Source of the DNA: Candidatus Bathyarchaeota archaeon
GTDB lineage: Archaea > Thermoproteota > Bathyarchaeia > Bathyarchaeales > Bathycorpusculaceae
Reading direction: 5' to 3'
Length of the DNA: 64,000 nucleotides
NCBI GenBank assembly: GCA_963828195.1
Contig: CAWHDT010000003.1
Span: 320,001-384,000, forward strand
Below, piece by piece: positions 6,698-57,338 of this stretch. Each line of letters starts with the position of its first letter. The stretch's first letter is position 1. A model generated the notes under the pieces. It did no database searches, was not told where the DNA came from, and was given only the letters and a program-made list of their open reading frames with translations. Made by a program: the position numbers and the translations under genes.

Positions 6698-7585
6698 CTA
6701 AAGAAGCGGCAGAATAACCAGACCCATGATTAATCCGCCCGCTAACCCCAGCATGATTGGGAAAGGCAAACCTGGAAAGATCCCTTTCTTTTCAAGTATG
6801 AAAAAAGTTATGATTGAACCCGCCATGATGCCCACGATTGAAACTAAGCATGGAAGTATTCCTAAGGGATAGCTGACTGAGTTGATGTAGGTGAAGAACA
6901 TGGAGCCGGTTAACATGGAGTAGAATACTAAGTCGCCGAGCCCCATCTGAATGTCTTTAAAGGAGAAGCTTAAGCCTTGAAGCTGATCCATTCCTCCTGA
7001 CGACTGAGCAATTTTTCCTACGGGACCACGATAAACCGCAAATACATCGTACACTGCCAGAAACGCTAGAATTAACACTGCACTCCACAGCGGGATTGCC
7101 CATCCGAAGAAAATGCCCAAGGCGCCGCCGATGCCTACAACAGCTACGTTGCGCGGTATGTTGCCCAGTCGGAAGATGGCGAGGTCAAACAGCACCATAA
7201 TAACAACGGACACCGCGATGAGCAAATACAGGTTTTCAAGGATTGGGAAATCGGCGAAAAGTGCATTGAGGTAAACAAGGGCTAAGAGCAGAGAAGCGGC
7301 GGACATGGCAACGACGATTAAGCCTTTGATGATATTTTTGCTTCGTCGTTTAAGCAGGAGATAAAATATGGTTGCGCTGATTGCGATGAGGACAACGAAG
7401 TATAATGCGTTGCCAAAGGGGGCTGAAGCGCTGTTGCCGCTTATAGGCGTAATAGGTGGAGCTGTTGACTGAGGCTGAGGCTTGAGCAAGTAAGCGCAGC
7501 CTAAACCGAAAACGAGGCTTGCCAGTATCGGAAGCAAATAGACAGTTTGAAACTTGAATTTGTCCAGCTTATCTTGTTCGGTCAC
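6698..7585 (-). CDS. Presenilin-family (A22) intramembrane aspartyl protease
   Basis: Multi-TM protein with AVYD, MGLGDLVFY (GxGD) and PGLP (PAL-like) motifs. Confidence 0.92.
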   Translation of the reverse strand: MTEQDKLDKFKFQTVYLLPILASLVFGLGCAYLLKPQPQSTAPPITPISGNSASAPFGNALYFVVLIAISATIFYLLLKRRSKNIIKGLIVVAMSAASLLLALVYLNALFADFPILENLYLLIAVSVVIMVLFDLAIFRLGNIPRNVAVVGIGGALGIFFGWAIPLWSAVLILAFLAVYDVFAVYRGPVGKIAQSSGGMDQLQGLSFSFKDIQMGLGDLVFYSMLTGSMFFTYINSVSYPLGILPCLVSIVGIMAGSIITFFILEKKGIFPGLPFPIMLGLAGGLIMGLVILPLL

Positions 7586-7590
7586 GTTGC

Positions 7591-8142
7591 TTACCCTAAA
7601 TTGCTAATAGCTAATGCCGCTTGCAAATAACACTGGTCACACAATAAGCTTTGCTTTTTATCCGTATCAAAAATAGAGTTGGAAAAATGCATAACGCATA
7701 AACTTCGAGGGCAATGCTGCAGACCCAACGTGTGACCTAATTCGTGAATTGACTCCTTTAAGACTCGCGATGCAAAAACGGTTGAGCCAGCGTTTTCTCC
7801 ATAAAACTGGGACTTAAGCCGCCACAGTGAAATCAAAGCGGCTCGTCCAGGAGTGTATGCTTCACCAAACACATAGTTCAACTCGGGCACAAAAATGTCA
7901 ACATCAACAACGCCCAAAACCCTGTGAAACGTCTCGTTTTTGGATCCAAAAGCTTTTACCTCATTAAGAATCACGCTTGAATTGTATTGGTTGCGTTTTT
8001 TATCAAAAGCCAACTTGGAAACAGGCAGGGCTTTCTTAATAATCGTGCAGGCTACGTCAGGAAAAGTTTTCACTAAACCCTGCTCAATCCCGGTTAGCAC
8101 ATCAGGGGATACTTCGCCAATAGCCAAAATACCTATCTTCAT
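7591..8142 (-). CDS. amzA: Archaemetzincin Zn metalloprotease
   Basis: HELGHTLGLQHCPRSLCVMHFS...C-x2-C signature. Confidence 0.93.
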   Translation of the reverse strand: MKIGILAIGEVSPDVLTGIEQGLVKTFPDVACTIIKKALPVSKLAFDKKRNQYNSSVILNEVKAFGSKNETFHRVLGVVDVDIFVPELNYVFGEAYTPGRAALISLWRLKSQFYGENAGSTVFASRVLKESIHELGHTLGLQHCPRSLCVMHFSNSIFDTDKKQSLLCDQCYLQAALAISNLG

Positions 8143-8151
8143 AATAACAGC

Positions 8152-9417
8152 CTATATCTCGTAGGTTTCTCCAGTCCTCGGCGCCACAGCATCCAACCCT
8201 AACTCGGCCTTCGCCCAATTCGCCAAAAGCTCGCAGTTGCCTTCGGCGCCGTGGACACAGAAAACTTTGGGTTTGCCGCCAAGCCGACGCAGCCCCTCTT
8301 TGAGCTGACTAGCGCCGCAGTGGGAGGAGAAATCAAAATGGCGGTACTGTGCCTTAACCTTGCTTACTTTTCCATCTATCGTGGTGACACCCTTGTCCAT
8401 CAGTTGTTTTCCAGGTGTTCCAGGAATCTGGTAACTGACCAGAAAAATAGAATTCGTTGCTTTCTTTGCTATTTTGGAGAGATAAAACTGTGATGGACCA
8501 CCTTTCAGCATGCCTGCAGGCGAGATAACTAGCCCCGGGTCCTTCGCGGCTCTTCGCCGATCACGCCATCCATCAACCCAATCCAGCGAGTGTATTGCAT
8601 TCACAAAAAGCCTTGGATCCCTAAGGAACTCTTTGTGATCCATGATTATTCGGCTAGCTTCCCGAGCCATCCCATCTAAAACAACAGGAAACTCAAAGTG
8701 ATTTGCTGCTAAAACGCAGGCGATTTCCTGAGCGCGCCCCACACCGAACGCGGGCACCAGAACTGTTCCGCCTCGCTCAACCACTTCAGTCGCCGCCTCA
8801 ACAAAATTCTTCTCAAGCTCAGGGCGCGGGGTATGATCCTCACTTGCATAGGTGCTTTCGGTGACAACGGCATCTAAATCTCCATAATCCATCGTTGCGC
8901 CTTTAAGCAGTTTGCTGTCTTCCATATTGTAGTCGCCAGTGAAAAGAATCTTCTTTCCGTCCGCTTCAACAAGCACCTGGGCGCTACCGGGCGTATGACC
9001 TGCATCAAACAGTTTAATCTTCATGTCGCCGATGGTTTCTTCAACCCCAAAATCCAAATGCCTGTTGTTATGCATCATGGCGTCAAGCTCAAGATATTCA
9101 AAAGGCAAATAGTAACCGGACAAATGAATAAAATCCTGAATAAGAACCTGCGTTAACTCTAAATTAAGCCTATTCGTGTACAGCGGCTTCTTATCGTTAA
9201 TATAAAACATCGGCACAGCGCCCGAGTGGTCAAGATGGCTGTGAGTTAAAACCACTGCGTTAACTTCTTTTGGCGGAACATGCATTGGGAAACCCGGTTC
9301 ATGATCAAGCATGACGCCGTAATCTAACACAACTTTACTTTTCTCTGACTTAACAGTTATACCGATTCTGCCAACTTCTCTTGCGCCGCCCAAAAATCCA
9401 ACTTGCAAGCAAACCAA
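8152..9417 (-). CDS. MBL-fold beta-CASP ribonuclease (aCPSF2-like)
   Basis: LGGAREVG, THSHLDH, AGHTPGS, TESTY, AFGVGRAQE, FSSH; no N-terminal KH domains. Confidence 0.92.
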   Translation of the reverse strand: MVCLQVGFLGGAREVGRIGITVKSEKSKVVLDYGVMLDHEPGFPMHVPPKEVNAVVLTHSHLDHSGAVPMFYINDKKPLYTNRLNLELTQVLIQDFIHLSGYYLPFEYLELDAMMHNNRHLDFGVEETIGDMKIKLFDAGHTPGSAQVLVEADGKKILFTGDYNMEDSKLLKGATMDYGDLDAVVTESTYASEDHTPRPELEKNFVEAATEVVERGGTVLVPAFGVGRAQEIACVLAANHFEFPVVLDGMAREASRIIMDHKEFLRDPRLFVNAIHSLDWVDGWRDRRRAAKDPGLVISPAGMLKGGPSQFYLSKIAKKATNSIFLVSYQIPGTPGKQLMDKGVTTIDGKVSKVKAQYRHFDFSSHCGASQLKEGLRRLGGKPKVFCVHGAEGNCELLANWAKAELGLDAVAPRTGETYEI

Positions 9418-46907: not shown

Positions 46908-48980
46908 TCAGTTGCAAGTTCCTTTTGAGGGGCAATCGGGATTCAGGCATGATTTCCAAGTCCTTTTCCCTTTCATGTATATACGCAACATTGGGTACCC
47001 ACAATTTTTGCAAGTGACTTTTAGGGGTTTTACTCCGCCAGTTTGAGGCAGCGGAAATGTCACGTTGCATTTTCCTTTGAAATAGTTTGTGCAGCCGACA
47101 AAACGTTTACCTGTTTTTTTGGAACGTAAAATAACTAGTTTTCCATCAGCACACTTTGGGCATGCACCAACTGTTCTTTCTTCAAGACGACCTTTATTCA
47201 AAGCTTGGCTAATTTGAATTCCTATAATGGACTCTTTTTCCTTAAGCTCAGCTAAAACTGGTTTCAAGATTTTAACAGCATTTTGCACCACAACTTCTCT
47301 TGTTTCTTTGCCTTGCTGAATTTCATTCATCTTCTCTTCAAGCTTTCTAGTTAGTTCAGGTGAGATAACAGCTGGACAATACTTTGATAGGATTTCGATG
47401 ACTTCAACGCCAAGGTCAGAAACCGCGAGACTCTTGGTTCCGTTTAGATATTTTCGGGCATACAACGTTTGTATGGTTGCTGCCCTCGTTGCTTTAGTGC
47501 CGATTTCCTCATTTTCCATTTTTAAAAGTAAAGTGCGAGGGTTGTATCTAGCAGGCGGTCTCGTAAAATTGTTTTTCACAGTTACTCTTTTAACTGAGAC
47601 TTTTTGTCCCCGAATTAAGTTGGGCAAAGCTACGTCATTCAGTTGGGCATAAGGTTTGTAAAATTGAAGCCACCCGTCACTTAGCGTTCGAACGCCATTT
47701 AAACGAAAAAGGTTCCCGCAGATACTAATATCTGCTTTCGTCCTTTGGCGGATGGCAGGCTCAGCGAAAACGGATAGGAACCTGCGAACAATAAGATCGA
47801 AAACGTTTCTTTCGCTTGCGCCAAGAGGTTTTTCTGGAAGGTTTCCAGTCGGGTAAATGGCTGGATGCGCAGAATCGGCTTTTTCCCCTTCATTGGGCTT
47901 CAAAACTGGCTGAGCGAGCAAGTAAGATGCAAATTTCTCGCAACCGGGCAGTTTAGTTAGTTTTCTTAATATGTTTCGGTAGTCGATTGTGGGCGGGAGT
48001 TTTTGGCTGCTTGTTCTGGGATACGAGATTAATGCATCCAAGTACAGGTGCTGAGCTATGTTTGAAGTACGAATCGGCATAAAGTGGAAATTTCTGTAAG
48101 CTTCACTTTGTAAAGTTCCCAAGTCAAAAGGCACCGGAGGTTTCTGCTCAAACTCTTCCACAACTGTCGTTTCTATTTGACCTTCTTTGCTTTTGCAGGC
48201 GTCTTTTACTGCCGTTGCTTCTTGGCTGCTTCTGAGGATTTTTTCATATTCAGCTTCGTATGTTGTGTCGTTTATGATTATTTTTGCGGTTATGCTCCAG
48301 AAAGGAGTGGGAACGAAACACTTTATGGTTTTTTCTCGATCTTCTAAAAATTTAAGGGTTGGCCCTTGTACTCAACCGGTGCTCAGTGTAGCGTATTGTC
48401 CGCTGCTTCTTTTCACAGCCATTGTTAAGGCTCTAGACAGGTTTATTCCGTAAAGCCAATCTACCTCATGCCTTGTCAATCCAGCTTCTACAAGAGCAAA
48501 ATCCAAATGCGGCAACAAGTGAGCGTAAGATTGCTGCAGTTCCTCTTTTGTAAGTGTAGAGTATTTCATGCGTTTAGCGGTTTTTTCTTTGCTGCCGCAA
48601 GCATACCTAAGTATGCAGTACCCTATGATGCTGCCTTCAATGTCAAAGTCGCATGCATCCACAAACTCCTCAGCGTTTTCTGCTAACTTTGCAATTACGT
48701 TTAACCAAACACGGATCTTCGATGCACTCCGTTCAGCAAGGTACCTTGGAACCCATTGATAGTCGAAAACTGGATAATCACGTTTAATTTTTTCTTTACT
48801 TGCAACGGTGTAAAGATGCCCAAGGGATGGCACAACAACGACATCGCTCTCTCTGTATGCTTTATAGTATGGAACGCCGTTCTCAACTATTTTTTGAGCT
48901 TTTCCATCTGCGTCCAAAGCCATAGCTATTCTTTTGGCGGCATCGGGTTTTTCAGTTACAATTAATGTGTACTTCCCCAA
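46908..48980 (-). pseudogene. topA: DNA topoisomerase IA interrupted by a single in-frame TGA (48372-48374)
   Basis: TEKP, GHL, CDFDIEG (TOPRIM), LSTG*VQGPTL, catalytic ISYPRT, GTKATR and C-terminal Zn ribbons all in one frame. 2073 nt = 691 codons. Confidence 0.93.
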
Positions 48981-49104
48981 AGGCGATTAACCACACACTT
49001 TAACATTCCAATAGACCCACTTAAAATAAACTTTGCAGTTAACTAAGTGCATTATTTAGGAACCAATAAATATGCCATAGCATGTTATTATCGGGGGATT
49101 TGGG

Positions 49105-49278
49105 ATGCCGCAGCGAGTTATTTGCCATGGATGCAATTATGTTTTATATGAAGGCAGCGAACTTAAACCACCAGACGAAATTATTTCGCAAAATGGCGGA
49201 AACTGCCCAAAATGCCATAGGAAACTTTCATTGTTACCCATAGACGTTGAAGTCAAACCCATATTTAAGCGACGATAA
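49105..49278 (+). CDS. Small Zn-ribbon protein (57 aa, below the ORF-track cutoff)
   Basis: MPQRVICHGCNYVLYEGSELKPPDEIISQNGGNCPKCHRKLSLLPIDVEVKPIFKRR*; two CxxC motifs; GGGGGA upstream. Confidence 0.85.
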   Translation: MPQRVICHGCNYVLYEGSELKPPDEIISQNGGNCPKCHRKLSLLPIDVEVKPIFKRR

Positions 49279-49551
49279 ATAAAGTCGCTCCAAAGCTTCG
49301 ATAACTGATCCTGCAAGAGAGCATTAGAAAAGCGACTTAGCGAGAGTATTACAAAAGTAAGTTTATGCTTTGTCTGCCCAAAACAGGGTTCAAAGCTAAA
49401 AATTCTTTTAATATTCTACATTGACTTTTTTGGCCTAACTGGATTTTTTGTTGATTTTAGCTTATTTCGGTTAAAAAATATCTATATAGTTTAGCTATTG
49501 GGTTATATTGCAATATATTTAAATTACTTTAATCACCAAACTATGTTAGTT

Positions 49552-49559
49552 CATTTTGG
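49552..49559 (+). repeat. Left target-site duplication CATTTTGG
   Basis: Identical 8-mer at 54935-54942 directly abutting the other element end. Confidence 0.92.
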
Positions 49560-49703
49560 GGTTCTGGTAACTTCATGGGTGATAAATCTACCTGTTAAGA
49601 ATCGGGTGATAAATCCGCTGTTTTCTGTCTCTCGGAAAAGACCTGTTAATCTTCGGGTGATGACAAGGCTTAAGTCAAGAATCACATAATAAACGATTGG
49701 GGA

Positions 49704-50126
49704 ATGAAAGAACTGTCTCAAAATATTGGAGAGAAAGCGGTTAATTATGTCTTAAATTATCTTAAAGAAACAGAGCACAAAGAAGCAAGGCGATGCAAAA
49801 AAGGCAAGAATGGTGAAGGTGCAGACATAATTTCTGCCGAAGGCAAATACATTGAAGTCAAAGGATGCGACAAAAAAGAAACCAATTTGCGAATTGCACG
49901 ACAATCATTAGAAAAGATTTCTAAAGCAGGTAAACTAAAACAAGATTCTTACTTCATCTACTATGTTTACAACATGGAGAAAGAACCCACTTTAATGATA
50001 TTCGATTATGACACTTATAACAAGAACAAATTTGAAGAGACCAAATTATTAATACAACCGTTTAAAATTGAGAAAGAAACGGGCAAACCTGAGAGAATAA
50101 AACTAAAGAAGATGACTAGCTCATAA
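49704..50126 (+). CDS. Small PD-(D/E)xK nuclease (DUF3883/NO VEIN C-terminal-like)
   Basis: E-x-AV-x-Y helix, then GADIISAEGKYIEVKG, YFIYYVYN. Confidence 0.75.
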   Translation: MKELSQNIGEKAVNYVLNYLKETEHKEARRCKKGKNGEGADIISAEGKYIEVKGCDKKETNLRIARQSLEKISKAGKLKQDSYFIYYVYNMEKEPTLMIFDYDTYNKNKFEETKLLIQPFKIEKETGKPERIKLKKMTSS

Positions 50127-51252
50127 ATTTTTTGCTCGCATTTTCTATGATGGTTTTCCACTTGTCATTTCCTTCAATGATTATTCCGCAAGCCTCGGCG
50201 GGAGTTTTGCCGTCTAACGCCTCATGAGGTCGAACATAATTATGATAAAGCTGATAGCCCTTGAGAGTAGCCGTATCGTCTTTCTTTAAGCCTCTCATGA
50301 CTTTTTCACGGTCTCTTACCTCGCCGTTCATGCGCTCCATCTTGTTATTGTTCATATCACCTCTTAGTTTTATGGCGTTAATATGCTCTGTTCTTGGAGC
50401 TTTTATGGTAAAAAACTCTTTTTTGTAAGCGTCATGATAAGCTGGAAGACCATCGGTTATGAAGGTCATGGGCTTTTTACCCATCAGTTCCTTAGACATT
50501 CTGAGTAGGTTGCGTGCGTCATGCTTATCTTTTGATTGCGCTACCTCTTGAGCAATCCAAAACCGTGTCTCATCATCCATCATAGCAAACAGATACTTCA
50601 TGTTGCCATTGATTTTAACGTATAACTCATCGGCTCTCCAAGTGTCACTAACGTTAGGCTTCATCTTCTCAAGATAATCAGTCATTAAAGCCGTGTACTT
50701 TGTTATCCACTTCAAAATTGAAACATGACTAATGGTTACGCCTTGTAGCTTTAGGAATTTCTGAACGTTCCTTAGTGACTCACCTGTGAAGTACAGTTGC
50801 ATCGCAGAGGTTATGACTTGAGGCGAAGCTTTCATATTCTCAAAACCAACATTGACGCTAAAGCGTTTGCCACATGCCTTGCACTTGTACCGCTGAAGAT
50901 CATACTTTTTGTTGTGGCGAACGGCATCTTTCACTATTTCTTCAGAGCCACAGTAAACGCATTTTGAAGTGTTCAAGGGCTGAATAACTACGTTGCGTTT
51001 GACTTGCTCCTTCATTTTGATGCTTACTTCTACCGCCACAATGTGCTTGCATTTTAAGTGTCGATAGGTGTGGTCTGGACATTCACAGTGCCATTCACCA
51101 TCAACCTGAAAAATCGCATACTCGCCATTTCCAGATTGTGATTTTACGGTGTAAAAGTTCTCTTCTATACTGATAACTTGACTCTCTTTGGATTGAGCAA
51201 TTACTAATCCTCTTTCTTCACGGACTTTTTCAAGTGTTTCAAGGCTCATCAT
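50116..51252 (-). CDS. IS6/IS240-like DDE transposase with N-terminal SWIM and Zn-ribbon domains
   Basis: SWIM CECPD...CKH; CVYC...CKAC ribbon; HTH SLRNVQ...SHVSILKW; WRADELY / ITDGLPAY / NNKMERMNG triad; HNYVRPHEAL.GKTPAE tail. Confidence 0.93.
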   Translation of the reverse strand: MMSLETLEKVREERGLVIAQSKESQVISIEENFYTVKSQSGNGEYAIFQVDGEWHCECPDHTYRHLKCKHIVAVEVSIKMKEQVKRNVVIQPLNTSKCVYCGSEEIVKDAVRHNKKYDLQRYKCKACGKRFSVNVGFENMKASPQVITSAMQLYFTGESLRNVQKFLKLQGVTISHVSILKWITKYTALMTDYLEKMKPNVSDTWRADELYVKINGNMKYLFAMMDDETRFWIAQEVAQSKDKHDARNLLRMSKELMGKKPMTFITDGLPAYHDAYKKEFFTIKAPRTEHINAIKLRGDMNNNKMERMNGEVRDREKVMRGLKKDDTATLKGYQLYHNYVRPHEALDGKTPAEACGIIIEGNDKWKTIIENASKKFMS

Positions 51253-51280
51253 ATTATATTACCTTCTTGTTTACCCACAA

Positions 51281-51397
51281 TATTACCATATGTCTTACTA
51301 ACTTATAAACATGATGGTAATACGGTAGGTAAACTAAACAAACTTTAAGGTAAACTTATATACCACAATCAAGCCATTTACCATATTGAAGGTAAAT
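51281..51397. promoter_or_regulatory. Divergent promoter region with inverted TTACC/GGTAA operator-like repeats
   Basis: TATTACCAT (51281) / ATGGTAATA (51314) and ATTTACC-N8-GGTAAAT (51376-51397); TATA-like CTTATAAA and CTTATATA. Confidence 0.55.
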
Positions 51398-51400
51398 AAG

Positions 51401-51625
51401 ATGGGCGAATTAACTACCCTTTCAGTAGCAACATCAAAAAAAGAATCTCTCAGAACAACCGTTCCAATGAGTATCCTAAAGCAGTTCAAACTATGTTCAG
51501 GTGATAAACTTGAATGGGAACTAGAAGCACGAAATAACGAATTGATTATTCTAGTAAAACCTGTTAAAAATTCAGAGTCCAAAGTGAACTCTGATTCTAA
51601 AAATTCCACTGAAAATATACGTTAG
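51401..51625 (+). CDS. AbrB/MazE/SpoVT-like DNA-binding protein
   Basis: SLRTTVPMSILKQFKLCSGDKLEW...IILVKP swapped-hairpin pattern; divergent from the transposase. Confidence 0.85.
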   Translation: MGELTTLSVATSKKESLRTTVPMSILKQFKLCSGDKLEWELEARNNELIILVKPVKNSESKVNSDSKNSTENIR

Positions 51626-51713
51626 TAATTGCCGTAAAACCTTTGAAAAAAGAAAAGTAGTAGAAGAACATATATAGAACTAATAAAAACCCGAAAGGAA
51701 AAATGTAAAAGAA

Positions 51714-53600
51714 ATGAGTCAATTTACCCGCCCCTTAGAATCTGCAACGAGAAAAGAGATAGACTTAGTTCTAAATAGCCTCGGATGGATTACTGACGAA
51801 ACAAAACCAACTTGCAACGTTTTTACTGAAAGAGCAAAAACACTAAATCAAAATGCTAGCTTCAAGGGGAATAATCCTGACTATGTTCTTTATAAATCAG
51901 GCACAGAAGACGACCCAATAGCAATTATTGAAGCGAAAAGGAAAGGTCAAAGTTTAGAAAAGGCTTTAGAACAAGCGATAGAAAAATATGCAAAACCGCT
52001 TGGTGTTTCCTTAGTTTTTGTTTACGATGCCACTTTTATAAGAACATTTGATTTAAGAAGTAAAAAGGAACTTACAATAGATGGAAATAGCTTAAAGCAG
52101 TTAGTTTCCGAAGCAAAACTGCTTCGTTTTCTGAAAACAGGTTCAAATATTGACGAAACTGCCCCTGAAGTAAAACACACTAGAGAAGAATTAATACGAA
52201 TTTTTAAATGGGTGGAAGAACTTCTAAGGCAAGAAGGTTTAAGAAACCTTGACAGGTTTGTTGAGTTTTCTAACTTATTATTCATAAAAATCATAAGCGA
52301 AATCGAAGACGACCGAGAAAAGAAAGGATTGCCTAGACGGTTAGCTAAAGACATATGTTGGGATAGCTTCTGTGATGAAAAAGACCCCAAAAAAATGCTC
52401 AACTACATTAACGATACTGTATTGAAGCAAGGTCTAGCTAAAGAGTATAATCATACTGACGATATTTTCCAAGAGAAATTAAAAATCCAAAATCCCCAAA
52501 CAGTTAAAGAAATAGTAAATAAACTATCCACCTTAACCCTACTCAACACTGAATCAGAGATTAAGGGTGATGCATTTGAGTATTTCCTAAAAAGCATAGC
52601 ATCTGGAAACGATTTAGGCGAATACTTCACCCCACGACATATCGTAAAGCTAATTGTGTCTTTGGTTAACCCAAAGTACGGAAACACCGTTTTAGACCCA
52701 TTTTGTGGAACAGGTGGATTTTTAATCGAAGCGTTTAGGCACCTAAAATCAAACGTAGACGAAAAAGACGAAAACATAGTGAAAGCACTAAAAGAAAAAA
52801 CCATTTTTGGGATTGAACTAACAGACACTTACAAAATAGCAAAAATGAATATGATAATCACTGGTGATGGGCACAACAACATAGTACAAGATGACGCTGC
52901 TAAAAACATTTTTTGGGACAAAATTATCGGTAGTTATAAAGAAAAAGACATAATCGAGGCTTTACAGGTCATAAAAGCTAAGGGGTTCGATGTAGTTTTC
53001 TCAAATATTCCCTATGGGCAACCAACAATTTTCGGAAATACTTATCCCATCCCATCAAATCAGGGCGATAGTGTCTTCATTCAATTCATAATTAAAATGT
53101 TAGGAAAAGATGGGCGATGCGGAGTGATAGTTCCAGAAGGATTACTATTCAGGTCGGAACACAAGAGTTTAAGAGAATATTTGATGCAAGAATGCGACTT
53201 AGAAGCTATCATTTCGTTGCCAAGCGGAGTGTTTTATCCCTATGCAGGTGTAAAAACAGACATTCTAATCTTTAAAAAGGGTAACTCAACTGAAAAAGTT
53301 TGGTTTTACAACGTAGAAAATGATGGATTTGAGCTATCTGCTAAAAGGAAAAAAATTCCAAAAGATGATTTGCCCGATGTTTTAGCCAAATTTCCATTGA
53401 GAGAAAACTCCGCTAAAAGTTTTAGTGTCCTGAAAAAAACTATAGAAAATAACGAGTTTAGACTCAATTTAACAAGTTACATTGAGAATAAAACAGGGGA
53501 ATTGACTTTCAAGTCTCCAATGCAAGTACTTGACGAAATCAATAAAATAGAACTAGAAATCAATAAAGAACTTGAAGTCTTAAACAAGATGATGCAATGA
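51714..53600 (+). CDS. Fused restriction endonuclease / N6-adenine methyltransferase (HsdR_N + HsdM-like)
   Basis: N-terminal PDYVLY...IIEAKR nuclease motif; GEYFTPRHIV, DPFCGTGGF, SNIPY (motif IV variant), IVPEG. Confidence 0.92.
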   Translation: MSQFTRPLESATRKEIDLVLNSLGWITDETKPTCNVFTERAKTLNQNASFKGNNPDYVLYKSGTEDDPIAIIEAKRKGQSLEKALEQAIEKYAKPLGVSLVFVYDATFIRTFDLRSKKELTIDGNSLKQLVSEAKLLRFLKTGSNIDETAPEVKHTREELIRIFKWVEELLRQEGLRNLDRFVEFSNLLFIKIISEIEDDREKKGLPRRLAKDICWDSFCDEKDPKKMLNYINDTVLKQGLAKEYNHTDDIFQEKLKIQNPQTVKEIVNKLSTLTLLNTESEIKGDAFEYFLKSIASGNDLGEYFTPRHIVKLIVSLVNPKYGNTVLDPFCGTGGFLIEAFRHLKSNVDEKDENIVKALKEKTIFGIELTDTYKIAKMNMIITGDGHNNIVQDDAAKNIFWDKIIGSYKEKDIIEALQVIKAKGFDVVFSNIPYGQPTIFGNTYPIPSNQGDSVFIQFIIKMLGKDGRCGVIVPEGLLFRSEHKSLREYLMQECDLEAIISLPSGVFYPYAGVKTDILIFKKGNSTEKVWFYNVENDGFELSAKRKKIPKDDLPDVLAKFPLRENSAKSFSVLKKTIENNEFRLNLTSYIENKTGELTFKSPMQVLDEINKIELEINKELEVLNKMMQ

Positions 53601-54772
53601 CTGACTTTGTAGGAATCATTGACGTATGCGAAATTAATCCATCAAAAAAAATAGCAAAACTAAACACAAACGAGCAAGTTAGTTTTGTAGAAATGTCCTC
53701 AGTCTCCGAAGATGGCAAAATAATCAACGAGCAAACGTGTCTCTTGAAAAATGTAGCGAAAGGTTTTACATATTTTGTCAAAGGCGACATAATCTTAGCC
53801 AAAATAACCCCTTGTTTTGAAAATGGAAAGAGAGCATATGTCAATAACATAAAGAACACAATTGGGTTTGGAAGCACTGAATTTCTCGTTTTACGACCTA
53901 ACGAAAAGATTGTACCTGAATACCTATATTATATGGTTAGCAGAAAAAAGTTTAGAGAAGATTTAACGCCTCTATTGGTTGGAACCGCAGGTCAAAAAAG
54001 GTTACATAAAGACGTTTTAGCAAATTATCTAATTCCTCTTCCATCTAAGCAGAAACAATTTGATATAGTCAACAAGCTAAAACAGATTGAAAAAATAAAG
54101 AAGTTAAGGATTACACAAAATGAGGCTTTTGACGAATTGATAAAAAGTAAGTTTTTGGCTTTGTTTGGAAACCCCTCGCAAAGTGATTTTTCACTTGTGG
54201 AGCTTCGTACCGTTGCTAAGTTGAATATGGGTGGAACACCATCAACCCAAAAACCTGAGTATTATGTTAATGGTGACATTAATTGGATGAAGTCGGGAGA
54301 CATTAAGTCCGATTTTGTCAAGATTATTCCGAACAAAATAACTAAGTTAGGATTAAAAAATTCCAATGCTAAAATGTATTCTATCGGTGACGTGGTTATC
54401 GCTTTAAACGGACAGGGTAAAACCAGAGCGACAACTGGAATTTTGAAGATAGAAACTGCAAGCAATCAGTCAGTAGCTTCAATATCTCCAAATTTGGATG
54501 TATTGCTTCCCGATTATTTGCATTTTGATTTGAAATATAGGTATCAAGAACTACGAAATTTAACGGGTGATAAGCAAAGAAGTGGTCTCAATTTGAATAT
54601 ATTGAGACAATTGGAAATTCCCTTGCCTCCACGGGAATTACAAAGTCAATTTGGCGATTTTGTAAGACAAGTGGAAATTATGAGAGAAAAACAAAATTCT
54701 TCTAAGATTGAAGCTGAACAACTATTTGAATCCGTTTTGAATGAACTATATGTTCCCAACGTTTCAAATTGA
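53597..54772 (+). CDS. hsdS: Type I-like specificity subunit with two TRDs
   Basis: AKITPCFENGK...GSTEF...GTAGQKR...IPLPS..Q; second TRD GGTPS...IPLPP.ELQ..F; ATGA overlap with the upstream gene. Confidence 0.92.
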   Translation: MTDFVGIIDVCEINPSKKIAKLNTNEQVSFVEMSSVSEDGKIINEQTCLLKNVAKGFTYFVKGDIILAKITPCFENGKRAYVNNIKNTIGFGSTEFLVLRPNEKIVPEYLYYMVSRKKFREDLTPLLVGTAGQKRLHKDVLANYLIPLPSKQKQFDIVNKLKQIEKIKKLRITQNEAFDELIKSKFLALFGNPSQSDFSLVELRTVAKLNMGGTPSTQKPEYYVNGDINWMKSGDIKSDFVKIIPNKITKLGLKNSNAKMYSIGDVVIALNGQGKTRATTGILKIETASNQSVASISPNLDVLLPDYLHFDLKYRYQELRNLTGDKQRSGLNLNILRQLEIPLPPRELQSQFGDFVRQVEIMREKQNSSKIEAEQLFESVLNELYVPNVSN

Positions 54773-54934
54773 AAAGCATTTTATCTTGTTAAGAAATTGA
54801 AATTTAACTACTATTTTTTCTAATCCAAGATTTTATCACTCTGTCACCCGTTTATTTACATGTACATTTCAAAGGCTTAATCCGTCACCCGAAAACTAAC
54901 AGAGAAAACCATCGCCTATGAAGTTAACAGAACC

Positions 54935-54942
54935 CATTTTGG
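54935..54942 (+). repeat. Right target-site duplication CATTTTGG
   Basis: Identical to 49552-49559. Confidence 0.92.
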
Positions 54943-55007
54943 AAAGCCATAAATAAACCTCCAATGTGTATAAATTAAGAATTAACCGATAAAGATACAA
55001 TTAACAC

Positions 55008-57338
55008 ATGGAGAGATGGCTTAAAGTGGGGGAAGGAATTAAAGATCGGCTAAGTAAAAGACTAGCACCATTACGCATCGAGCTAAGTCACGGACAAATA
55101 ATAGCGTATTCTGCGTTAGCTGTAATATTGTTCGTCGCATTTATCGTCAGAATTTTGCCTTTACGCTGGGAAAACCTCTCCGGAGGAACATCTCTTCTTA
55201 ACGAGTTTGACCCTTACTATCAATTCAGCATCACGCAATACATGGTAAATCACGGTTTGATTTCACCTTTTTATCCCACGCACTGGATCAACAATCAACT
55301 GTGGTATCCTTTCGGACTTGACATGTCCACTGCCTTGCCATCAATTCCTATAACGGGTGCAGTGGTCTATGATGTCATCGCAGGTTTAGGCGCAAGCGTT
55401 AATTTGATGACCCTTTGCGCAATGATTCCGCCTGTGGTTGGTGTCATTTCGGTTTTGGTGATTTATTTCTTAGGCAAAGACATTGGTGGAAGAACAGTTG
55501 GCTTATTATCTGCGTTGTTCTTGGCGTTAGAGCCCTCTATCATTGAAAGAACATCTCTGGGGTTCTTTGATACACAGGTCCCAGGAACTATTGGTCTTAT
55601 CTTATTCGTATTCTTATTCTTGAGGTCTATCGACAACAATAGGTCCCTACGTCAATCAATCTTTTACGCGTTAGGTTCCGCCGGCGCCCTAGCTTATTTC
55701 ATAGCAGGCTGGGGTGGAGCATACTACATGATTGACATGACTGTTCTGTTCGTTTTTGTTATGGTTCTGTTTAAGAGGTACAATCAACGGCTTCTGATTA
55801 GCTACAGCATATCGTTTGGTTTAGCATTATACATTTCAGCAATAGTGCCCTATCTGGGACTCACCTACTTAACTTCAGGGGCAGTAATTCCTGTAGCTGG
55901 CGGATTCGTTTTACTTCTCATCGCGGAACTTTTACGAAACAACATATCCTTAAGAAGCAAATTACTTATAGCAATTACTTCGCTTGTCATAATTGTTGGC
56001 GGTTTTTCCACATTATATGCCGTTGGATTCATCAGTGGCAGTGGTCTTCAAGGTAAATTCAGCACAGTTTTGGATCCCTTTATCAGAGCAACTTCGCCCA
56101 TTATCAATTCAGTAGCTGAACAACAAATTACAGCTTGGGGAAACATATACATTGAACTAGGCGTAGGCATCCTATTCTTCCTCATCGGCTTCTACTTTGT
56201 ACTGAAAAATCCAACGAACAGAAACATCTTCCTAGTAGTTTTCGCCATAACATCGCTTTTCTTCGCTGCTTCAATGATTCGTTTACTGGCAATCTTTGCC
56301 CCAGCGTTCTGCATCATAGCGGGCGTGGGCATTCTGGGTCTCATAAAACCGTTTTACACTTTACTTAAAGAAGCGCCGCACAACCTCGCAAAAACAAAAC
56401 GTAGAATGTCGCGAGTAAGCAAGGAATACAGCGGCATCGCAATCTTTCTGATATTCCTAATACTGGTAACTGACGTAGCTTTCTCACCGCAAACTGGCGG
56501 AATACCAAGAGCCATCGACCAATCTTACGTGCCCACAGCGATAAGCGCATCGAGCCTTCCCATAGGCGGCGCAAGCCTAAGTCAACCAGTAGGCGCATGG
56601 CTTGACGCGCTAAGCTGGATGAAAAGCAATGTTCCCGCAAATAATGCTATGGTTGCTTGGTGGGACTATGGCGACTGGTTAACCAACCTTGGAAACGTAA
56701 CAACTCTGTGCGACAACACCACGTACAATACTACGCAAATCGAAAACGTAGGCTACATAATGATGGGCAACGAAAACCAGTCAATGCAAATGCTAAACAA
56801 CTATGAAAACTACCACAATCCTGGGCTGGTCAACTACATCCTCGTCTTCACCGTTCTGCAAATATCTCAGTCAAGCAGCGGCTCAGGATACACCGTGAGT
56901 CCTGCTGGATACGGAGATGAAGGGAAATGGGTGTGGATGGCGAGAATTTCAGGAACAGCAGAGTCATGGTACGAACAAAATAACTACATGAATGCAACGA
57001 CATCAACAGTATGGTCAAATGAAAACGCCTTCGGCAACACCGATAACCAAACAGGGCAGTGGGATTGGAACCTGCAAGGAGATAACTGCACAATCTATGA
57101 ATTGATGAACTATGCAGAAGTGCAATATTGCAACCAATGGACTGCCGCCTCAGGAACTACGTTCACGCCAAGTACGACAACAACAACGCCGACATACTTC
57201 GTAAATCCCTACATCGCTGGCGAAGACACATCACCATTCGAATACGGCGGATTAGTGCCGTTAGTTGCTATCTACCAAATCGACTACCAAGCATACTATA
57301 ACGCGACGGGCGCAACAGGCACAGGCGGCACAGGCTAA
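55008..57338 (+). CDS. aglB: Oligosaccharyltransferase AglB/STT3
   Basis: EFDPY, RTSLGFFD, SVAEQ, WWDYG, DNTT, DEGK motifs; many TM helices. Confidence 0.96.
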   Translation: MERWLKVGEGIKDRLSKRLAPLRIELSHGQIIAYSALAVILFVAFIVRILPLRWENLSGGTSLLNEFDPYYQFSITQYMVNHGLISPFYPTHWINNQLWYPFGLDMSTALPSIPITGAVVYDVIAGLGASVNLMTLCAMIPPVVGVISVLVIYFLGKDIGGRTVGLLSALFLALEPSIIERTSLGFFDTQVPGTIGLILFVFLFLRSIDNNRSLRQSIFYALGSAGALAYFIAGWGGAYYMIDMTVLFVFVMVLFKRYNQRLLISYSISFGLALYISAIVPYLGLTYLTSGAVIPVAGGFVLLLIAELLRNNISLRSKLLIAITSLVIIVGGFSTLYAVGFISGSGLQGKFSTVLDPFIRATSPIINSVAEQQITAWGNIYIELGVGILFFLIGFYFVLKNPTNRNIFLVVFAITSLFFAASMIRLLAIFAPAFCIIAGVGILGLIKPFYTLLKEAPHNLAKTKRRMSRVSKEYSGIAIFLIFLILVTDVAFSPQTGGIPRAIDQSYVPTAISASSLPIGGASLSQPVGAWLDALSWMKSNVPANNAMVAWWDYGDWLTNLGNVTTLCDNTTYNTTQIENVGYIMMGNENQSMQMLNNYENYHNPGLVNYILVFTVLQISQSSSGSGYTVSPAGYGDEGKWVWMARISGTAESWYEQNNYMNATTSTVWSNENAFGNTDNQTGQWDWNLQGDNCTIYELMNYAEVQYCNQWTAASGTTFTPSTTTTTPTYFVNPYIAGEDTSPFEYGGLVPLVAIYQIDYQAYYNATGATGTGGTG

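Follow-up and report, generated by a model that had tools for sequence, protein, structure and literature searches.

In bacteria, resistance and defence genes spread by way of DNA transposons that take them along as cargo. Among the described groups, the insertion sequence (IS) family IS6/IS26, including its long clostridial group (ISCpe7; clade h/VII), is characterized by an IS240/IS6-type DDE transposase, by ends that start with GG and have a G at position 7, and by a target-site duplication (TSD) of 8 bp, which is a hallmark of the family. The described members are single-gene elements of 0.7-0.9 kb (1.2-1.7 kb in the long group), whose cargo is moved by two-copy pseudo-compound transposons. 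Transporter IS (tIS), in the ISfinder definition, are elements with a single IS-type transposase whose sole pair of terminal inverted repeats (TIRs) encloses passenger genes without a function in transposition; they turn up occasionally in a number of bacterial IS families. In the present work, a 64,000-nt stretch of the genome of a soil archaeon, a Candidatus Bathyarchaeota archaeon (contig CAWHDT010000003.1, positions 320,001 to 384,000; referred to as the window) was analyzed, in which a 5,375-bp element with an IS6-related transposase carries a restriction-modification (R-M) pair within a single pair of TIRs. It has the IS240/IS6-type DDE transposase, the GG ends with G7 and the 8-bp TSD, but with 5,375 bp and four further genes it departs from the compact IS6 format of a sole gene in 0.7-0.9 kb (up to ~1.7 kb). 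Unlike the bacterial tIS, its relatives have archaeal hosts, carry cargo as the norm and often contain R-M genes.

Several other systems resemble this element in part. Tn3-family unit transposons with toxin-antitoxin genes share the cargo and, as supposed here, the cointegrate route, and a study of them reportedly found small regulator- or antitoxin-like genes beside the transposase promoter, as in this element; they differ in having a transposase of ~1,000 aa (378 aa here), a resolvase, 38-bp TIRs and a TSD of 5 rather than 8 bp. Tn7-family cargo elements have reportedly been seen in archaea, but without an IS6-like transposase. The same holds for aloposons, passenger-carrying elements of archaea, which use tRNA genes as integration sites and code for giant proteins according to the part of their description used here (PMC8813620). 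In the sections drawn on from a survey of thaumarchaeal mobile elements, passenger-carrying transposons are said not to have been detected in archaea (Krupovic et al. 2019, PMC6563490); the "IS6" strings in those sections belong to IS605, IS607 and IS630, and the supplementary IS tables or Fig. 7 might list elements of the present kind. For IS6 itself, the portion of the 2021 review that was available describes elements of 0.7-0.9 kb and long clostridial forms with a zinc finger, and names ISDsp3 as the single member with a passenger gene (Varani 2021, PMC7986276). Literature searches, outside which lay ISfinder, TnCentral and paper supplements, returned no published description of an archaeal cargo family with a SWIM-containing IS6-like transposase, and it is on these searches that the family is called undescribed.

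Boundaries of the element and its empty sites

The transposon occupies positions 49560-54934 of the window (Table 1). Its 24-nt TIRs match at 21 positions and begin with GGTTCTG at both ends, and the inverted repeat to which they belong (51 nt at 75%) is longer than any other that a repeat finder reported for the region. When any GG...CC inverted pair flanking the transposase was admitted in a blind search (at least 14-16 of 22 positions matching), the sole pair with an 8/8 duplication was this TIR pair, and the same search at 40 mock loci of the genome returned one pair with an 8/8 duplication, matching at 15/22 positions. The first-pass annotation had proposed a 5,375-bp unit bounded by inverted repeats and an exact TSD, with five uninterrupted genes and a composition AT-richer than the flanks; all of this was borne out, as CATTTTGG stands on both sides, five open reading frames (ORFs) lie within the element, and its GC content is 0.357 compared with 0.428-0.446 in the nine contigs of the genome.

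Stronger evidence for the boundaries came from genomes that do not have the element. Positions 48000-56500 were searched against 40 relatives, and three congeners (G004, G019 and G016) matched in two pieces, at query positions 2-1560 and 6936-8501, with the left- and right-flank matches overlapping by exactly 8 bp in each of them. The junction at these empty sites reads ...GTTAGTTCATTTTGGAAAGCCATAAATAAAC... and contains one CATTTTGG, so that the breakpoints fall precisely at 49560 and 54934, as predicted for relatives without the cassette; the same empty junction was also observed in three further, more diverged relatives. The R-M genes were detected in none of the 40 relatives in this search, which returned merely two stray matches of ~40 nt.

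Public metagenome runs gave a similar picture. Pieces identical to the element were found in soil and bog runs from four studies. A contig of run X2 joins position 49551 to 54935, skipping 5,383 nt (5,375 + 8) with 8 letters that fit either side, and thereby supplies the empty site that had been suggested as a check in read data. Other contigs of X2 cover the interior of the element without any difference (100% identical), and interior pieces with 100% identity are present in runs X3 and X4, from which no conclusion on habitat or host is drawn.

Empty sites thus lack the entire 5,375 bp, and the element contains one transposase and no second IS copy. Positions 49560-54934 are a genuine unit transposon ("transporter IS") that has precise limits, was inserted recently and belongs to an archaeal family related to IS6. 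It is very probable that its one DDE transposase moves everything within the single TIR pair, the R-M cargo included. The earlier interpretation, which was a unit transposon with one internal transposase and cargo on both sides of it, is therefore supported, all of the tests that could be run having come out in its favour.

Table 1. Features of the element and its TSDs in the window
Feature	Position	Strand	Basis or remark
Left TSD copy, CATTTTGG	49552..49559	none	Sequence reading; one copy at the empty sites of relatives
Left TIR (IRL), GGTTCTGGTAACTTCATGGGTGAT	49560..49583	+	Sequence reading, repeat finder and blind pair search; fits the family consensus GGTTCTGTtAAgTctTCGtctG
Two subterminal direct copies of the end motif, ACCTGTTAAgaaTCGGGTGAT	49590-49610 and 49641-49661 (span 49590..49661)	+	Repeats D17, I4 and I21
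NOV_C (DUF3883-type, nuclease-like) cargo protein, 140 aa	49704..50126	+	Pfam NOV_C 9.4e-11
Transposase, 378 aa	50116..51252	-	Matches to DDE_Tnp_IS240, SWIM and NCBIfam IS6
Putative divergent promoter/operator region with GGTAA/TTACC repeats	51253..51400	none	Repeat I9
AbrB/SpoVT/MazE-like small DNA-binding protein, 74-79 aa (74 from the ATG at 51401)	51386..51625	+	Pfam MazE_antitoxin
R-M fusion, 628 aa, HSDR_N + N6_Mtase	51714..53600	+	Pfam HSDR_N 9.9e-8, N6_Mtase 2.5e-58
Specificity (S) subunit, 391 aa, two target-recognition domains	53597..54772	+	Pfam Methylase_S 2.6e-26, two stretches
Two right-end subterminal motif copies (TCACCCG...)	54844-54869 and 54885-54902	-	Inverted repeats I4 and I21
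Right TIR (IRR), reverse complement GGTTCTGTTAACTTCATAGGCGAT	54911..54934	-	
Right TSD copy, CATTTTGG	54935..54942	none	aglB (STT3) begins 66 bp downstream, at 55008

With regard to the neighbouring genes, TATA-like boxes (ATAAATAA and TATAAATTAAG) persist between the insertion and aglB (54943-55007), and the promoter of aglB may therefore be intact. Upstream of the element, a topoisomerase gene on the minus strand appears as two ORFs of 202 aa (48372-48980) and 417 aa (46908-48161) that are separated by a gap of 210 nt, which could be due to a frameshift, a pseudogene or an artefact of ORF calling.

An archaeal family of elements with extra DNA

The element does not stand alone. Its own genome (2.83 Mb in nine contigs) contains seven full-length transposase paralogues at 59-68% identity, in addition to remnants, and each of the seven full-length copies has GGTTCTG-type ends and an exact 8-bp TSD, the sequence of which differs among copies: CATTTTGG (this element, 5,375 bp), TAATAAAG (4,109 bp), TGTTTTTT (6,051 bp), TCCAAAAT (3,841 bp), ATTGTTCA (2,948 bp), and CTCTCTCT and TCGAACAG (2,434 bp each). 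The two 2,434-bp copies are 100% identical and lie at different sites, pointing to recent transposition. The encoded transposase consists of a SWIM zinc finger (C56xC58...C68xH70), a second zinc ribbon of the CxxC...CxxC type (C98, C101, C124 and C127), a helix-turn-helix (HTH) region and a DDE core (D208, D267 and E306, with R313); the SWIM ligands, the ribbon cysteines and the four core residues were invariant in all eight aligned paralogues.

The same organization extends well beyond this genome. A homologue at E <= 1e-30 was found in 45 of 101 genomes of the genus, and among 31 loci from the genus whose identity was 53% or more, 30 had the same ends and an 8/8 duplication, the remaining one (L065) having no exact TSD. 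When one genome per species was scanned, 207 relatives were recovered, and 58 of the best 80 loci showed an 8/8 duplication; the other 22 were without an exact TSD, many of them lying on short contigs or having perfect TIRs without a TSD (e.g., L108, L128 and L137). In line with the earlier interpretation, the same kind of ends, 8-bp TSDs and extra genes accompany homologous transposases at these loci, within the genus and in the wider scan alike. After deduplication, 74 distinct elements remained, all with an exact 8-bp TSD and with sizes of 1,983-9,197 bp (median 3,674). A bare transposase-only element was not observed among the 74, and even the smallest carries 0.83 kb of other DNA, which sets this family (2.0-9.2 kb) apart from the described IS6 members. 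Extra DNA is thus standard in this large family of archaeal elements.

The ends of these elements are well conserved. In the 148 ends of the 74 elements, positions 1-2 (GG) were imposed by the search, whereas T3 (93%), T4 (94%), C5 (94%), T6 (100%) and G7 (97%) were not. The family end consensus is GGTTCTGTtAAgTctTCGtctG, and a second, weaker copy (cTGTtAA...TCG) is present at end positions ~33-49, so that the ends probably carry two or more copies of a binding site. In this element, the subterminal copies of the end motif are presumed to be additional binding sites of the transposase, judging from their sequence.

According to their labels, most hosts belong to Bathyarchaeia (including "Bathycorpusculum"), and others to Nitrososphaerales, Nitrosotalea, Methanoperedens, Methanoregulaceae and Asgard bins. 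Bacterial labels were attached to a few carrier contigs (L075, L113 and L120, Limnocylindrales; L090, Saccharibacteria; L130, Gammaproteobacteria). Since the bin labelled Limnocylindrales (G093) was placed in the genus of the window itself, these bacterial labels are probably wrong, due to mislabelling or contamination. Transposases from different phyla are still 57-65% identical, and a tree built by a quick method groups them mostly, not wholly, by host, which fits transfer between phyla. Three viral contigs from IMG/VR (L155-L157) encode relatives of the transposase at 57-65% identity, and viruses or proviruses might ferry these elements.

A more distant transposase clade in the genus (L066-L074; nine loci, 32-39% identity, ~380 aa) showed no TIR or TSD in the search for GG ends and 8-bp duplications, and these nine loci are not counted among the 74 elements. 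Within the own genome, a 40-nt left end at C5:22237-22276 (in L022, C5:22237-22298) resembles that of the present element, the first 20 nt differing at one position. It is truncated by the end of another family member (junction GGTTCTGGTGCATCTTCGGGTA), and this junction recurs as a loose end in X2; here, one family member has inserted into a decayed sister copy, giving a nested arrangement. Two end pairs of the same genome without a transposase between them, which may be deleted derivatives or derivatives similar to miniature inverted-repeat transposable elements, were unconvincing (C7:15232-16169, 938 bp, without TSD; C3:74585-75369, 785 bp, with a TSD of 7/8).

Cargo, with proposed regulation and mechanism

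Apart from the transposases, the elements contain 183 ORFs with a length of 100 aa or more, and 103 of these were singletons without a relative in the set. Pfam analysis of the 148 ORFs of at least 125 aa identified N6_Mtase (14), N6_N4_Mtase (4), Methylase_S (6) and HSDR_N (5), together with single cases of the restriction enzymes BsaWI, AlwI and GmrSD + HNH and with HEPN, NYN and DUF3800, and PADLOC, in agreement, assigned cargo proteins to MTase_I (14), type IIG (9) and Specificity (11). DNA-methylase or restriction cargo was detected in 19 of the 74 elements (14 of the N6_Mtase type, four with an N6_N4 methylase and one GmrSD-like), so that cargo of the R-M type recurs in the family. By transposase clade, R-M-type cargo is present in all eight elements of the clade that includes the present one, in all five of another clade and in two single elements. 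Within the former clade the transposases are 73-85% identical, compared with 24-52% for the R-M proteins, whose architectures are split, fused or single-chain, which implies exchange of the modules and not plain inheritance.

Other cargo is of different kinds. In many elements, the arm upstream of the transposase has a gene for 53-75 aa whose stop codon overlaps the start codon of a following gene for 140-220 aa, an arrangement reminiscent of toxin-antitoxin pairs; the 140-220-aa proteins of these pairs matched no Pfam model and are spread over a number of unrelated clusters. The idea of a third core gene common to all elements was considered and rejected, as the 140-220-aa ORFs past the AbrB-like gene belong to unrelated clusters that iterated profile searches did not merge. 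For paralogues B, C, E and G of the same genome, PADLOC and Pfam recognized hardly anything in the cargo, the only hits being weak ones to SocA_Panacea and DUF4145 in E. Cargo that does not resemble defence genes was also noticed (L047, L089, L116 and others), including four weak Proteasome-subunit matches and one TBP (Pfam 1.3e-29).

In the present element, the R-M fusion has an N-terminal nuclease of the PD-(D/E)xK type (PDYVLYK...IIEAK, residues 55-75) and a gamma-class N6-adenine methyltransferase part with motif I DPFCGTG at residue 328 and motif IV NIPY at residue 431. It was assigned to MTase_I (9e-99) and REase_MTase_IIG (9e-26) by PADLOC. The S subunit, whose gene overlaps that of the fusion by 4 nt, matched Specificity_I (5.3e-55), and no helicase or ATPase motor domain was detected in any of the element's proteins by Pfam, NCBIfam or PADLOC. 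With nuclease and methylase in one chain, a separate S subunit with two target-recognition domains and no ATP-dependent motor, the pair has the architecture of type IIB/IIG enzymes such as BcgI and BsaXI, a likeness drawn from sequence only; however, in the PDB it is nearer to the M subunits of type I systems (E 1e-37) than to RM.BsaXI of type IIB (4.4e-16), and its motif IV differs. The remaining cargo gene, encoding the NOV_C protein, overlaps the 3' end of the transposase gene by 11 nt in a tail-to-tail arrangement; the protein matches the C-terminus of TmtA in PADLOC (1.1e-6) and has no homologue in the 73 other elements.

The AbrB-like gene is divergent from the transposase gene and is the first gene of the R-M operon. 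Homologues are present in 31 of the 74 elements, on the strand opposite to the transposase in 30 of them and at 90-134 bp from the transposase start in 27. In the intergenic region of the present element, a 21-nt inverted repeat (51269-51289 and 51314-51334) surrounds TATA-like boxes. Across the family, the motif GGTAW/WTACC occurs 4.26 times per 100 nt in 28 transposase-AbrB intergenic regions and 0.36 times elsewhere in the elements (~12-fold), forming inverted repeats around TATA-like boxes, and the best perfect inverted repeat in these regions averages 7.2 nt as against 1.8 in shuffled sequences. This pattern is consistent with an autoregulated divergent promoter/operator, of which the AbrB-like protein would be the presumed regulator.

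On this basis a mechanism can be proposed. The transposase most likely binds the 22-24-nt terminal site and two or three subterminal copies at each end, and the ends would then be joined to target DNA cut with an 8-bp stagger, which would account for the duplicated 8 bp. On the model of IS6/IS26, transposition is probably replicative and would proceed via a cointegrate that is resolved by host recombination. The divergently transcribed AbrB-like protein probably represses both promoters, while the R-M pair would stabilize the element as an addiction module and could also protect the host from viruses.

Affiliation, alternative readings and significance

Besides the 8-bp TSD, a relationship to IS6 is suggested by the profile searches, in which the best Pfam and NCBIfam models for the transposase are IS240 (DDE_Tnp_IS240, 2.3e-17; 63.8 bits against a cut-off of 27) and IS6; rve also matches in Pfam, and SWIM does so above its gathering score (1.2e-4). 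Homologues of the transposase make up 5,529 protein clusters at E <= 1e-20, close ones carry the NCBI name "IS6 family transposase", and the ISCpe7-type matches share the CxxC zinc ribbon ahead of the HTH. The GG ends with G at position 7 followed by TT are as given for IS6/IS26, whose ends are 14 bp long in the IS26 type, in the part of Harmer and Hall (2019, PMC6807381) that was drawn on. A number of observations, taken up here and in the next paragraph, weigh against an active, IS6-related unit transposon. The transpos_IS6 model of NCBIfam passes marginally (127.8 bits against a cut-off of 125, residues 137-340), weak matches are also given by the IS1, IS481 and IS3 models, and an IS1/IS1595-type zinc domain lies at residues 98-132. 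The nearest annotated proteins in 72,556 plasmids, clostridial transposases of the IS6/ISCpe7 family, are 28-31% identical over residues 96-366 only, and a PDB search with the transposase returned no match. In addition, no recombinase domain was found by Pfam or NCBIfam in any ORF of the element, which thus has no resolvase, and any cointegrate that forms would have to be resolved by the host. IS26 also differs from these elements with respect to the SWIM finger, the subterminal repeats and the size of 2-9 kb, and the same part of Harmer and Hall (2019, PMC6807381) argues for splitting off archaeal and long clostridial "IS6" forms as a separate family. The IS6 assignment made in the first-pass annotation thus stands in that the Pfam and NCBIfam cut-offs are passed, but it is borderline, being 2.8 bits over the NCBIfam cut-off and at ~30% identity to the ISCpe7 type. 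It is possible, although we consider it less likely than not, that the transposase represents a separate non-IS6 DDE family that shares the RNase-H-fold core and has acquired GG ends and 8-bp TSDs by convergence, in which case the chemistry (e.g., cut-and-paste or copy-out-paste-in) would differ from the cointegrate route of IS26.

Whether the element is still mobile, and whom its R-M genes serve, bears on the same interpretation. A fossil insertion, structurally complete but now immobile and with a decaying R-M pair, would explain why motif IV reads NIPY (window 53004-53015, residues 431-434) in place of the NPPY or NPPF of those 11 relatives that showed a canonical motif IV (NPPY in the closest, L040, at 52% identity, and NPPY or NPPF in the 10 others), a difference by which the R-M pair may be impaired. 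It would also fit the TIR mismatches at 3 of 24 positions and the single copy of this exact element in its genome, where the similar left end at C5:22237-22276 has been truncated by a family member. The empty-site contig of X2 deviates from the window at 49518 and 49520 and is therefore derived from a very close strain lacking the insertion rather than from excision within the same clone; moreover, the runs were taken as Logan contigs, which are blind to depth, circles, cointegrates and expression, and element parts without cover in them carry no meaning. Nevertheless, a fossil is unlikely, considering that the five ORFs are all open, the TSD is exact, the catalytic DDE residues and zinc ligands are intact, the empty-site allele coexists with the element in the same metagenome, the sister elements of the genome include 100% identical copies, and element-identical pieces occur in runs from four studies. 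As for the regulator, the MazE_antitoxin match of the AbrB-like protein (5.7e-4) is below the gathering score and the gene is missing from 43 of the 74 elements. The first-pass description as intact defence cargo holds for the open ORFs and the R-M domains; intact function and a defence role are predictions from sequence features, among which the NIPY motif may be unfavourable. Quite possibly, though somewhat short of probably, the R-M genes serve the transposon itself, either as a selfish addiction module or by protecting it through their methylase, instead of being a host-selected defence. The methyltransferase cargo is restricted to two transposase clades (four state changes on the tree) and hence moves together with certain lineages of the transposon, the AbrB-like gene heads the R-M operon much like a controller protein, and many other elements have toxin-antitoxin-like pairs beside the transposase. 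However, both roles are compatible and not mutually exclusive, and the divergence of the R-M proteins relative to the transposases points to repeated exchange of specificity, as expected under viral selection.

For the unit transposon described here, the interest lies mainly in the family-level picture. The window contains a cleanly delimited archaeal cargo transposon with an empty site as proof, and its 74 relatives of 2-9 kb are distributed over several archaeal phyla, about a quarter of them carrying DNA methylase or restriction genes. With one 378-aa transposase and short ends, it offers a tractable system for understanding how an IS6-type enzyme handles long cargo, and genetic tools for archaea that are hard to manipulate might be built on it. 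Position inside such elements also provides a route to archaeal defence and accessory genes, including the 103 singleton ORFs. Tentatively, with a confidence just short of even, these elements can be seen as a previously undescribed archaeal family of IS6-related unit transposons, distributed over Bathyarchaeia, Nitrososphaeria, Methanoperedens, Methanoregula and Asgard bins, in which cargo is the rule, an AbrB-like regulator is paired with the transposase, and whole sublineages are devoted to shuttling fast-changing R-M systems. If this is true, the family would be a major and so far overlooked vehicle by which defence genes in soils and sediments move inside archaeal phyla and from one phylum to another.

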